A DNA stretch of 64,000 nucleotides from Nannocystis sp. SCPEA4. GTDB taxonomy: Bacteria; Myxococcota_A; Polyangia; Nannocystales; Nannocystaceae. The notes beneath the pieces were generated by a model. That model did no database searches. It saw only the letters and a list, made by a program, of their open reading frames with translations, and had not been told where the DNA came from. Shown here piece after piece: positions 54,086-57,111 of this stretch. A program made the translations under genes and the position numbers. The stretch covers positions 12,752-76,751 of the forward strand of contig NZ_JAPNJX010000001.1 of assembly GCF_026626685.1 (NCBI RefSeq). Direction: 5' to 3'. Numbering within the stretch: position 1 is the first letter of the stretch; the number at the start of each line of letters is the position of its first letter.

Positions 54086-55423
54086 GTGTCTTCGCGCGGC
54101 GCGGCGTGCTATCGCAGGCCCGTGCCCAAGGCACCTCTGCTCGCTCCGCCCGGGCCGCCGACGCTCACCTTCCGCTGGGACGGCGCCGCCGTCGCCGCCT
54201 GTCCCGGCGACACCGTCGCCTCGGCGCTGATCGCCGCCGGCGAGCTCGCCACCAGCCGCAGCGCCAAGTACCGCCGCCTGCGCGGCCCGGCCTGCCTCCA
54301 CGGCGGCTGCGGCACCTGCCTGGTGCGCGTCGACGGTCGGCCCAACCAACGCGCCTGCCTCACGCCTGTCCGCGAGGACATGGTCGTCGAGCCGCAGAAC
54401 ACCTACGGCGGCCTCGACCCGACCGCCCTCGTCGACCAGATCTTCCGCCGCGGCATCGACCACCACCACCTCGTCGTCTACCCCCGGCTCGCCAACCAGA
54501 TGATGCAGGGCGTCGCGCGCGAGCTGGCCGGCTTCGGCGAGCTGCCCGACGCCCCGCCCGACGACGCCGCCGGTCTCTTCGACCATGTCCCCGAGGTCCT
54601 GGTCATCGGGGCAGGTCGCTCCGGGCGCGCGCTCGCGGCCGCCCTCGCCGCCGCCGGGCGCCCGCCGCTGGTCGTCGAGCGCCGGCCCGCCGCCGCCCTG
54701 CCCGCCGCCGGCCGCCCGGCCCACCTGCTCGCCGGCGTCGGCGTGTTCGCCTGCTACCCGCAGGAGCGGCTGTGGGCGGCCGCCTCCGAGCACCCGCCCG
54801 TGCTCCACCGGTTGCGCCCGCGCCACGTCGTGCTGGCCGTCGGCGCCCACGAGCCGACCATCCCGCTGGCCAACAACGACCTCCCCGGGGTCGTCTCGGC
54901 ACGTGGCCTCGCGGACATGCTCGAACAGACAGGTCGCCGCCTGGCCGCGCGCGTCGTCGTCATCGGCGAGGGCCCGCGCGCCGAGCTGCTCGCCGCCGGC
55001 CTCGGCGCCGAGCGGGTCGCCCCGGCGCGCGTGCACAAGCTGCTCGGCGCCCGCCGGGTCAAGGGCGTGCAGCTCGACGACGGCAAGATCCTCCGCTGCG
55101 ACCTCGTCGCCCTCGCCCCCGACCCGGCCCCCGCGTTCGAGCTGGCCGCCCAGGCCGGCGCGCCGATCCGCTTCACCGGGGCCGGCTTCGCCCCCGAGTG
55201 CGACGCCGACGGCCGGATCGCCGCCGGCCCGGCCGCCCACCCGCTCGAGGCCGCCGACGCCCAGACCGCCCCGCCGCCGCCGTGGACCCTGTGGGCCGTC
55301 GGCGAGCTGGCCGGCGCGACCACCCCCGCGGAGATCCAGGCCAGCGTCGACCGCTGCGCCGCCGCCCTCCTGCGCGCGCTCGCCGAGTCACCTGCCCCGA
55401 AGGACAGCCATGCCCGCGCCTGA
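54086..55423 (+). CDS. [2Fe-2S]- and FAD/NAD(P)-binding oxidoreductase subunit (HcnB / opine-oxidase A / sarcosine-oxidase-alpha-like)
   Basis: N-terminal ferredoxin-like Cys cluster (CLHGGCGTCLVRVDGRPNQRAC) followed by two Rossmann motifs (VLVIGAGRSG, VVVIGEGPRA). Confidence 0.75.
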   Translation: MSSRGAACYRRPVPKAPLLAPPGPPTLTFRWDGAAVAACPGDTVASALIAAGELATSRSAKYRRLRGPACLHGGCGTCLVRVDGRPNQRACLTPVREDMVVEPQNTYGGLDPTALVDQIFRRGIDHHHLVVYPRLANQMMQGVARELAGFGELPDAPPDDAAGLFDHVPEVLVIGAGRSGRALAAALAAAGRPPLVVERRPAAALPAAGRPAHLLAGVGVFACYPQERLWAAASEHPPVLHRLRPRHVVLAVGAHEPTIPLANNDLPGVVSARGLADMLEQTGRRLAARVVVIGEGPRAELLAAGLGAERVAPARVHKLLGARRVKGVQLDDGKILRCDLVALAPDPAPAFELAAQAGAPIRFTGAGFAPECDADGRIAAGPAAHPLEAADAQTAPPPPWTLWAVGELAGATTPAEIQASVDRCAAALLRALAESPAPKDSHARA

Positions 55424-55597
55424 GCCGCCGCGCCCGCACCTGTCCTCGCGGACAGCCCCCTCGCGTCCCGCGGCCCGGTCTCGTTCCCACATGTCCCCGC
55501 GGACAGCCCCCTCGCGCGGGCAGGCCCCGTGGTCGCACATGTCCCCGCGGACAGCCCTCTCCTCCCCTTCCGCTCACCCCCGGCTCCGAGGCCAACC
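55424..55597. repeat. three tandem ~45 bp units (acatgtccccgcggacagccccctcgcg...) in the intercistronic spacer
   Basis: Read directly. Each unit contains the ACATGTCC and CGGACAGCC motifs of the window-wide repeat family. Confidence 0.8.
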
Positions 55598-55897
55598 ATG
55601 ACCGCGCGCACCTTCGTCTGTCGCTGCGAGGACGTCACGCTCGGCGAGATCGAGCGGGCGATCGCCGTCGGCCTCGCCGACGTCGAGGAGATCAAGCGCT
55701 ACACCGGCCTCGGCACCGGACCGTGCCAGGGCAAGGAGTGCCTGTCGGCGCTCGGCCGCCTGCTGGTCGCCCGCGGCCTCGTGCCGGCCGCGGCGCTGCG
55801 GCCGTTCACCGCGCGCCCGCCGGTCGAGCCGGTCACCTTCGGCGCCCTCGCGGCCGGCGCCACCGGCCCCGACACTCCGGAGGATCCCTCGCCATGA
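55598..55897 (+). CDS. BFD-like [2Fe-2S]-binding small subunit (HcnA/LhpE-like)
   Basis: About 99 aa with CRCEDVTLGEI and GTGPCQGKEC cysteine pairs. ATGA overlap with the next gene. Confidence 0.65.
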   Translation: MTARTFVCRCEDVTLGEIERAIAVGLADVEEIKRYTGLGTGPCQGKECLSALGRLLVARGLVPAAALRPFTARPPVEPVTFGALAAGATGPDTPEDPSP

Positions 55898-57111
55898 CGG
55901 CAGCGATGGGCCGTTCCGACACCGCCCTGCCGGCCGACGTCGACGTCGCCGTGATCGGCGGCGGCATCATGGGCCTGGGGCTCGCCTACCATTTGGCCCT
56001 GCTCTCCGGGACAGGTGCGAAGGGCAAGCCGCCGCTGTCGGTCGCCGTCATCGAGCGCAGCTACCTCGTCAGCGGCGCCTCGGGCCGCAACGGCGGCGGC
56101 GTGCGCATGCAGTGGGGCGACGCCGGCAACGTCCGCCTGATGATGGACAGCATCGAGCTGTGCAAAGACCTCGCGCAGCAGCTCGGCATCAACCTGTGGT
56201 TCCGCCAGGGCGGCTACTTGTTCCTCGCGCGCAGCGAGGCCGGCGAGCGTCGGCTCGAGCGCAACGTCCACCTCCACGCCGAGGTCGGCGCGCCGACCCG
56301 CCTGCTCACCGCCGCCGAGGCGCAGGCGATCGTCCCGCAGCTCGACGTCGCCGAGGTCCGGCTCGCCACCTTCAACCCCGAGGACGGGGTCGTCTTCCCG
56401 TGGGCCTTCGTGTGGGGTTACGCCGCCAAGGCGGTCGAGCGCGGCGTCCTCCTGCGCACCCACACCAGCGTCACCCGCGTCGAGCCGCTGGCCCGCGGCT
56501 ACGCGCTGCACCTCTCGACCGGCGAGGTCGTGCGCGCCGCCCGGGTCATCAACGCCACCGGCGCCTGGTCCGGCGCGCTCAACCGGCAGCTCGGCATCGA
56601 CCTGCCCAACAAGCCGCACCGCCACGAGATCCTCTCGTCCGAGCCGCTCAAGCCGTTCCTCGACCCCCTGGTCGTCGACCTCTCGACCGGCCTCTACTTC
56701 TCTCAGAGCACCCGCGGCGAGCTCGTCACCGGCATCAGCCTGCCCGACGCGCCCGACGGCAGCGACGAGAGCCTCACCCTCCACTCCAGCCTCCGCTTCC
56801 TCACCCACCTGAGCCGCACGCTCACGCGGCTGATGCCGATCACCGCGGCGATGAAGGTCCTGCGCCAGTGGGTCGGTCCCTACGACGTCTCGCCCGACGG
56901 CGACGCGATCGTCGGCCCCAGCCCCGGACACCCCGATTTCATTCAGGTCTGCGGCTTCACCGGCCACGGCTTCATGATGGCGCCCGCCGTCGGCCGGCTG
57001 CTGGCGCGCTGGCTCGTCGACGGCGAGGTCCACCCGATGCTCGCGCGCTGGTCCCCGGGTCGCTTCGCCGCCGGGGGTGTGGCCCGCCGCGAGGACATGA
57101 TCATCGGCTGA
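55894..57111 (+). CDS. FAD-dependent oxidoreductase, DAO family (HcnC / sarcosine-oxidase-beta / glycine-oxidase-like)
   Basis: VAVIGGGIMG dinucleotide motif (with an inserted loop) and the C-terminal GHGFMMAPAVG motif of DAO enzymes. Confidence 0.85.
   Translation: MTAAMGRSDTALPADVDVAVIGGGIMGLGLAYHLALLSGTGAKGKPPLSVAVIERSYLVSGASGRNGGGVRMQWGDAGNVRLMMDSIELCKDLAQQLGINLWFRQGGYLFLARSEAGERRLERNVHLHAEVGAPTRLLTAAEAQAIVPQLDVAEVRLATFNPEDGVVFPWAFVWGYAAKAVERGVLLRTHTSVTRVEPLARGYALHLSTGEVVRAARVINATGAWSGALNRQLGIDLPNKPHRHEILSSEPLKPFLDPLVVDLSTGLYFSQSTRGELVTGISLPDAPDGSDESLTLHSSLRFLTHLSRTLTRLMPITAAMKVLRQWVGPYDVSPDGDAIVGPSPGHPDFIQVCGFTGHGFMMAPAVGRLLARWLVDGEVHPMLARWSPGRFAAGGVARREDMIIG

Follow-up and report, generated by a model that had tools for sequence, protein, structure and literature searches.

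Three genes of Nannocystis sp. SCPEA4 (g1, g2 and g3), predicted to encode the subunits of an amino-acid dehydrogenase, lie in tandem within the 64,000-nucleotide (nt) stretch of contig NZ_JAPNJX010000001.1 analyzed here (the window). g1 and g2 are separated by a spacer made of hairpin repeats, which, judging from the relatives, is a lineage-specific, fast-evolving expansion of a formerly overlapping gene junction. In each of the ten spacer-bearing genomes (the window, L001, L003-L006, L010, L087, L007 and L169, the L numbers designating loci of relatives; spacers of 50-285 nt), an open reading frame (ORF) beginning at the relic of the old g2 start crosses the whole spacer and stops at the present g2 start. 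On comparative evidence, the array most likely persists because this relay ORF preserves translational coupling. The assignment of the enzyme and this explanation of the spacer are jointly given a probability of about 0.6.

The g1-g2-g3 order is kept in about 50 Polyangia genomes, as well as in many soil metagenome contigs, and in 31 of the approximately 50 genome loci g1 overlaps g2 by ATGA or GTGA. Only the Nannocystis clade has this spacer; in most relatives, g1 and g2 overlap by ATGA. Four relatives without a spacer (L163, L164, L165 and L168; g3 identity 85-89%) have g2 starting within the last g1 codons. In three of them (L163, L165 and L168), the junction reads ...CCTGCCCCCGAGGACAGCC ATGCCTGA... 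(in a longer form, for example, ...CACCTGCCCCCGAGGACAGCC ATGCCTGA...), and the g2 start is the ATG equivalent to the window's relic ATG. Because the spacer-less relatives show this arrangement, one hairpin unit probably stood ancestrally ahead of the g2 start, with its 3' arm as the Shine-Dalgarno sequence. The g1 tail of the window retains this ancestral junction (CACCTGCCCCGAAGGACAGCC ATG CCC GCG CC TGA), its degenerate fourth hairpin unit being the 3' end of g1 itself, and a second ribosome-binding site (RBS) with ATGACCGCGC lies 174 nt further downstream. The relic ATG and its AAGGA are kept in all core-clade species, while the spacers behind them measure 174, 168, 51, 285, 249 and 276 nt and have interiors that differ almost wholly from one species to another. 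Elsewhere in the clade, the lengths are 87 (L010, where the array consists of five 18-nt units), 53 (L087), 50 (L007) and 80 nt (L169).

These comparisons give the following course of events. In the ancestor of the genus, the g2 ATG lay within the final g1 codons (the overlap being ATGNCTGA or ATGA), behind a hairpin CTG(T/C)CC-N4-GGACAG whose 3' arm supplied the Shine-Dalgarno sequence. Dispersed palindromic units then piled up after the g1 stop, so that g2 was moved downstream and now follows a second copy of the RBS and ATG. In a Nannocystis metagenome-assembled genome (MAG), the g1 tail holds an extra in-frame 21-nt hairpin unit (L007:250-300, PVSEDMS ahead of PVPGTSHD*), so hairpin units can be absorbed into coding sequence. 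Two g1-g2 spacers outside Nannocystis are devoid of the hairpin motif (L015:5383-5631, 249 nt; L074:5553-5675, 123 nt); that of L015 keeps the old GGAGG-ATGA junction at the g1 stop and has it duplicated at the g2 start.

The preliminary description of this locus had called the spacer unusual and composed of three tandem units of about 45 bp. The three units and their tandem order stand, but the period is 48-51 nt, since Tandem Repeats Finder gives a period of 51 (2.5 copies, 83% matches) and a repeat search finds three copies spaced by 51 and 48 nt. The array is indeed beyond chance, with 13 copies of the motif in the window where 0.19 would be expected, and that description is completed by the history given above. 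Each unit has the hairpin core CTGTCC-N4-GGACAG, within a conserved part that reads CAC(C/A)TGTCC-N4-GGACAGCC. The guanine-cytosine (GC) content at codon position 3 is 0.81-0.82 in the spacer of the window versus 0.94-0.96 in the genes, by which an ordinary coding sequence is ruled out. The minimum-free-energy structure of the spacer contains three GC-rich hairpins of 5-6 bp; a stable global RNA structure was rejected, as the z-score is only -0.69, no better than shuffled sequence. Searches of Rfam upstream of g1, in the spacer and across the operon region (53500-57600) returned no match at E up to 1.

The spacers share a regularity of frame. The ORF that opens at the relic start (ATG, or GTG in L169) spans 21-100 codons, encodes a peptide that is not conserved, and terminates in ten of ten genomes with a TGA located +1 or +5 relative to the start codon of g2 (ATGA or GTGNNTGA). 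On a conservative count, there are approximately 7-11 independent origins or length changes, all of them frame-keeping, which is improbable by chance and corresponds to P ~ 3^-7 to 3^-11 (roughly 5e-4 to 6e-6), a value that is only rough because the counted events share phylogeny, and which is to that extent a weakness of the argument. Against Nannocystis radixulma (L001), the operon genes are 97.7-98.8% identical at the DNA level and gap-free (g3 of strain NCELM being 100% identical in amino acids), and the spacers, of 174 and 168 nt, differ by indels measuring 15+3 and 12 nt, as against 1, 150 and 5 nt for the indels in the untranslated yggS-g1 region. The g3 protein is also 100% identical to one listed for Nannocystis sp. 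SCPEA4, while exact-protein look-ups of g3 and of P0001 gave no record. From the junction hairpin to the g2 ATG, N. punicea (L002) is 22 nt shorter than L003, as counted from the sequences. It has lost both the relic start and the g1 stop; therefore, g1 itself falls in the relay frame and ends on ATGA. No such frame rule was seen in the long spacers of unrelated lineages, for which metagenome relatives served as the control set. The L015 and L074 spacers are both multiples of three in length, L015 having no relic-start ORF that spans its spacer; a general rule of this kind for long spacers of the enzyme family was thus discarded, as it is absent outside the Nannocystis clade. An exact-pattern scan of metagenomes for more Nannocystis spacers found none, and a protein-based scan gave only distant relatives.

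How the relay ORF might work can be proposed from its position. Ribosomes finishing g1 would open up the junction hairpin, initiate at the relic ATG (55410), read a 63-codon ORF without meaning over the array, and terminate at the TGA within the ATGA that marks where g2 begins. There, they would reinitiate, and subsequently pass to g3 through the second ATGA (55894-55897). With the relay ORF ending on the g2 start and a second ATGA at g3, translation of g2 and g3 would stay coupled. The C-rich spacer would remain covered by ribosomes instead of serving as an entry site for Rho. The anatomy of the junction, its ancestry and the keeping of the frame are established by the sequences, whereas relay-ORF translation, coupling, and protection from polarity are inferred.

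Several observations weigh against this explanation. All three frames are open in every spacer, in DNA of about 72% GC, and for that reason only the frame relation is informative, not openness. The GC content at codon position 3 of the spacers (0.70-0.88 across the genomes) is unlike that of the genes, which fits a non-selected peptide or absent translation. g2 has a Shine-Dalgarno sequence of its own, GAGG, and could initiate independently. Hairpin units at other junctions of the window (gcvT-gcvH, ~35500) come without a bridging ORF, so that bridging does not go with the repeat in general. The same points speak for an untranslated array of a neutral or selfish kind, resembling repetitive extragenic palindromes (REPs), ahead of a g2 that starts on its own Shine-Dalgarno sequence, the frame relation being a by-product or chance; the L010 array also suits it, as slippage of 18-nt units preserves the frame automatically. 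This alternative is nevertheless unlikely. Against it stand the frame being kept ten times out of ten over widely differing spacer lengths and at least three to four separate origins, the spacer indels in multiples of three, as opposed to those of the yggS-g1 region (in one genome pair), the ORF that still ends on ATGA in the shortened L002 junction, and the retention of the relic ATG and AAGGA throughout the core clade.

It is rather improbable that the array acts as an RNA or DNA element, through mRNA stabilization, processing, protein binding, or an internal promoter uncoupling g2-g3 from g1. The predicted hairpins, together with a motif that is strongly over-represented, dispersed and often located at gene junctions, would agree with such a role. 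Action at this level is reported for REP and bacterial interspersed mosaic element (BIME) repeats, and promoter activity has been reported for the senX3-regX3 copies of mycobacterial interspersed repetitive units (MIRUs) (PMC4213456). However, no sigma-70-like promoter and no terminator were detected in the spacer, although myxobacterial promoters may escape detection; the fold does not exceed shuffled sequence in stability, Rfam gives no match, and the frame rule is left unexplained. A required regulatory role is further argued against by the spacer interior, which varies between species, and by its being missing in close relatives. Readthrough or recoding of the g1 TGA (55421) would instead yield a g1-linker-g2 fusion resembling the one-chain alpha subunits of the archaeal L-proline dehydrogenase (L-ProDH) and SoxA. 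g1 and g2 do share a frame in the window and six other genomes, where the open 3n spacer would read as a Pro/Ala-rich linker, and alpha and BFD form one chain in PH1363, SoxA and L070. In L007, L087 and L169, however, the spacers of 50, 53 and 80 nt leave a remainder of 2, which puts g1 and g2 out of frame while the relay rule holds; g1 of L002 terminates in the other frame, and ancestrally the two genes overlapped and were read in different frames. Such a fusion, selenocysteine insertion included, is largely refuted by the frame data from those three genomes, and is very improbable. A relay ORF that maintains coupling thus remains the preferred explanation, and the features on which it relies are collected in Table 1.

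Table 1. Positions in the window of the operon, the spacer between g1 and g2, and the associated motifs and repeats.
Feature	Position	Strand	Details
yggS	53027..53758	+	pyridoxal phosphate (PLP)-binding YggS/PLPBP family; Pfam Ala_racemase_N; TIGR00044
g1	54086..55423	+	445 aa; alpha-type flavin/nucleotide-binding subunit with gamma-type [2Fe-2S] domain fused N-terminally (predicted)
Gamma-type [2Fe-2S] motif of g1	54293..54358	+	Cys70-x4-Cys75-x2-Cys78-x12-Cys91
Adenosine diphosphate-binding motif of g1	54608..54625	+	G175-x-G177-x2-G180; invariant alignment columns
Relic g1/g2 junction	55392..55423	+	degenerate hairpin unit 55392-55407; AAGGA 55400-55404; ATG 55410-55412; g1 stop TGA 55421-55423
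Proposed relay ORF	55410..55601	+	63 codons, MPAPEPPRPHLSS...RLRGQP*; relic ATG start; stop TGA overlaps g2 ATG (ATGA)
g1-g2 spacer	55424..55597	+	174 nt; hairpin units 55440-55455, 55491-55506, 55539-55554
Present g2 Shine-Dalgarno GAGG	55588..55591	+	6 nt ahead of ATG; read from sequence
g2	55598..55897	+	99 aa; BFD-like 4-Cys protein, C8-x-C10-x32-C43-x4-C48
g3	55894..57111	+	405 aa; DAO-family catalytic beta subunit (predicted)
Weak hairpin-motif copy in g3	55999..56014	+	2 mismatches; length-variable loop (LLSGTGAKGKPPLS)
Hairpin arrays elsewhere	near 270, 2690-2770, 6040-6090, 9084-9252, 25577-25797, 35480-35520, 52554-52611, 58324-58353

The hairpin units of the spacer belong to a larger population. 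The count of 13 given above allows at most one mismatch to the core CTGTCC-N4-GGACAG; with up to two mismatches, it rises to 39, versus 3.7 expected. Since the motif is over-represented in the window, occurs often in Nannocystis loci and is hardly present in other genera, it constitutes a dispersed, genus-level repeat family. Its palindromes (ACCTGTCC-N4-GGACAG/T) are often clustered, with spacings of 33-98 nt. A literature search for palindromic repeats of Nannocystis found nothing relevant, and no bridging ORFs were found at the window arrays 24821-24896, 2673-2782 and ~35500. At 2673-2782 and 35470-35540 (minus strand), the units fill the gcvT-gcvH intergenic region and the junction upstream of a gene starting MSVKLKVCGVT. 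Copies also occur in frame within genes. For example, four units at 9084-9252 lie within the ORF 6288-9626, past its ECF sigma-factor domain and a hydrophobic stretch, where they are read as repeated LS(R/P)ETS peptides in the same unit frame as that of the relay ORF. A conserved hypothetical gene (52097-52978) has in-frame copies at 52194-52209 and 52554-52611 (VPEDS, VPEDM...GPVLSAS), and its coding-type GC content at codon position 3 drops at these copies. Another tandem repeat (51846-51993; period 69, 2.2 copies, 86% matches) sits between a Maf-like gene on the minus strand (51067-51858) and this hypothetical gene, which begins at 52097 on the plus strand. Over the whole window, the plus strand shows a strong asymmetry, with 40.4% C versus 32.2% G.

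Repeat units had previously been proposed inside both large subunits of the enzyme, a claim that is not borne out for g1. The copy at 54366-54381 encodes PVREDM, which is conserved in all genera, and is therefore not an insertion. The copy at 55392-55407 belongs to the 3' end of g1 itself and is the ancestral junction hairpin, which is also found in the spacer-less relatives. For g3, the claim is weakly upheld by the two-mismatch copy, which lies in a loop following the first Rossmann helix; the length of this loop differs by 1-8 codons among Nannocystis species, and in L164 it resembles the L010 spacer unit. An in-frame insertion of a unit in this loop is plausible, if weakly supported.

The closest counterpart of the spacer among known repeats is the MIRUs. 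According to PMC12548453, which cites Supply et al. 1997, an ORF runs through the MIRU and has its coupling with the downstream gene at -4 nt, which minimizes the effect on expression. Both systems have tandem repeats of tens of nucleotides placed at a start codon between co-oriented operon genes, with an ORF through the array that overlaps the flanking stop and start (in Nannocystis, in the ten genomes, its translation being predicted), and with length or copy-number polymorphism between close strains, such as the window and N. radixulma. The sequences are presumably unrelated, and the likeness would be one of analogy. Moreover, the Nannocystis unit is conserved only as a palindrome of 16-20 nt with non-conserved filler between units, there is one ORF per whole array and not one per unit, many copies are unbridged, and the phylum is Myxococcota. 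By this analogy, and on comparative evidence, the spacer is most likely a MIRU-like arrangement in a myxobacterium. REP and BIME repeats, as well as the Rickettsia palindromic elements, are similarly dispersed short palindromes, often clustered, which occur at intercistronic sites and, for some copies, in frame within genes; the Nannocystis units are much shorter than the Rickettsia elements. A broader picture is offered as a tentative one: genus-specific, expanding palindromes would seed arrays at junctions and in frame inside genes, selection would keep a relay ORF, of non-coding quality, through those arrays that split coupled pairs, and the whole would represent an independent myxobacterial counterpart of the MIRUs.

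The sequence environment of the spacer also has practical consequences. In short-read metagenomes, the contigs of four close relatives end in or beside the spacer (L161, L166 and L167) or within g2 (L162), which suggests that the repeat array may break assemblies. Caution is required, as short-read assemblies may break in the g1-g2 spacer and the relay ORF will go unannotated by gene callers. Upstream of the operon, the 150 nt of the yggS-g1 intergenic region that are missing in N. radixulma (53769-53918) comprise two CTTCGAA-centred segments, and the yggS-g1 gap is only 24-29 nt in the close relatives L168 and L169.

Regarding the enzyme itself, the three genes and the ATGA overlap of the last pair were confirmed as initially described, including their coordinates, and the ORF list of the window holds no further small ORFs in the operon. 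g1 starts with GTG, L003 and L004 having ATG at the same position. Its Pfam matches are Fer2_4 (E 4.6e-25, residues 26-105) and, below the gathering score for the single sequence, Pyr_redox_2; cysteines C70, C75, C78 and C91 are invariant in 17/17 aligned orthologues. g2 matches SO_alpha_A3 (7e-18) and Fer2_BFD (1.2e-14), and g3 matches DAO (pfam01266, E 2.9e-71, residues 17-373), with its GxGxxG at residues 22-27 (VIGGGIMG). No promoter-like or terminator-like sites were found between g1, g2 and g3 in the window, and the gene downstream of g3, which codes for a metallo-beta-lactamase (MBL)-fold hydrolase, has its own promoter-like site.

The family motifs described by Watanabe et al. 2015 (PMC4575208) are two GxGxxG, C-x4-C-x2-C-x11-12-C, C-x-C-xn-C-x4-C, and, in the beta subunit, R-x-W, a putative flavin mononucleotide (FMN) site. 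All of them occur in the three proteins, and on this basis g1-g2-g3 is assigned at the family level to the heteromeric dye-linked amino-acid dehydrogenases, which include L-ProDH, D-hydroxyproline dehydrogenase (D-HypDH), OpnDH and hydrogen cyanide (HCN) synthase. The R-x-W of g3 is LRQW, kept in all aligned orthologues (LRTW is the equivalent in 1y56_B). The second Cys motif is described within the alpha subunit, with n = 15-20 in that set (PMC4575208); here, it is on a separate polypeptide, g2, with n = 32, which is near the spacing in the PH1363 alignment. The proposed likeness to HcnABC, opine oxidase and LhpBEF therefore holds at the level of the family, while the nearest solved relative is the archaeal L-ProDH. 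The suggested HcnABC-like layout of subunits fares less well, since alpha carries the gamma-type Fe-S domain as a fusion and BFD is encoded by a gene of its own.

Among solved structures, g3 is best matched by 1Y56 chain B, which is the L-ProDH beta subunit from P. horikoshii (212 bits, E 1e-61, full length), compared with about 104 bits for SoxB in the same PDB comparison and E values of 1e-14 to 1e-18 for monomeric glycine and sarcosine oxidases. With a profile built from 17 orthologues of g1, SoxA alpha scores 6e-36 and PH1363, the alpha subunit of the same L-ProDH, 3.8e-32, whereas generic pyridine-nucleotide oxidoreductases do not go beyond 6e-13. g2 aligns to residues 414-491 of PH1363 (the C-terminal ~80), where the four Cys are retained, and to residues 483-568 of SoxA (domain A3), where the four Cys present in g2 have been lost. 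Thus, g1 and g2 together equal an L-ProDH-type alpha subunit cut ahead of its BFD-like domain. The closest plasmid relative of g3 (37% identity) belongs to an Azospirillum gamma-alpha-beta cluster adjoining an amino-acid ABC transporter, and the Agrobacterium and Rhizobium plasmid homologues reach only 25-30% identity. Clustering of g3 with ThiO, the monomeric glycine oxidase, had been named as an outcome that would point to an unrelated neighbor arrangement; g3 scores 88 bits on TIGR02352 for a cut-off of 251, and ThiO was rejected. Heterotetrameric sarcosine oxidase was likewise rejected (103 versus 1164 bits on TIGR01372, 178 versus 529 on TIGR01373), there being no GCV_T domain.

These relationships place the enzyme close to several known systems. 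With the archaeal L-ProDH PDH1 (PH1363/PH1364, 1Y56), it has in common the beta subunit, the alpha profile, the C-terminal 4-Cys domain of alpha and the gamma-like region fused to alpha as in g1; such a region at the N-terminus of L-ProDH alpha has been described (PMC4575208). It differs in its BFD-like domain, here a separate 99-aa protein, and in its host, here a bacterium. LhpBEF, OdhABC/OoxAB and HcnABC possess the same domain set, the two GxGxxG, both Cys motifs, R-x-W, and tandem co-oriented genes, whereas their gamma is a separate small protein, their BFD motif is within alpha, and no transporter or catabolic genes flank the Nannocystis operon. As for SoxABDG, g1 and g2 together correspond to SoxA in its N-terminal half (Fer2_4, flavin domain, A3) and g3 is SoxB-like, but the folate-binding GCV_T half, SoxD and SoxG are lacking from the Nannocystis operon, and the Cys ligands missing from SoxA are still present in g2. 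Overall, the enzyme is an ordinary, uncharacterized representative of a known family, set apart by its unusual split between alpha and BFD. That the three subunits function together, and assemble, is predicted from the overlapping genes and from natural fusions: alpha, BFD and beta form one 940-codon ORF in a Polyangiales chromosome (L070:4348-7167), and BFD and beta (g2-g3) are fused in two MAGs (L072:1237-2841 and L073:5449-7056). g3 would use flavin adenine dinucleotide (FAD) to oxidize an amino or imino acid at its C-N bond, and the electrons would then go to g1 and g2, by analogy with the family via an interface FMN.

The identity of the substrate is more speculative. yggS, correctly noted as lying just upstream (TIGR00044 153.7 bits for a cut-off of 106, E 5.6e-45), is directly upstream of g1 in 43 fetched loci across Nannocystaceae. 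yggS genes often adjoin proC, so that a substrate of the proline or pyrroline-5-carboxylate type can reasonably, if only weakly, be guessed. The leading candidate, though a doubtful one, is a proline-like imino acid, and a B. japonicum beta subunit close to L-ProDH does not use proline (PMC4575208), which counts against it. Glycine, which had been listed as an option together with HCN formation, finds no specific support. A cyanide-forming glycine dehydrogenase would share the superfamily and the domain set with g1-g2-g3, but it is improbable, given that, among solved relatives, g3 is much nearer to L-ProDH beta than to any other, that the subunits are split unlike HcnA/HcnB/HcnC, and that the conserved neighbor is yggS and nothing linked to cyanide.

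In this enzyme family, where the substrate of a member is difficult to foresee, the operon adds an uncharacterized branch that is widely conserved in Polyangia. In several lineages, its formerly overlapping gene pair is split by 50-285 nt of fast-evolving hairpin repeats, and each keeps an ORF from g1 to g2. If the proposed explanation is true, this would constitute comparative evidence for selection on translational coupling itself, and self-bridging, MIRU-like insertions would not be limited to mycobacteria. It would also offer a natural system for measuring how far operon stoichiometry depends on termination-reinitiation.

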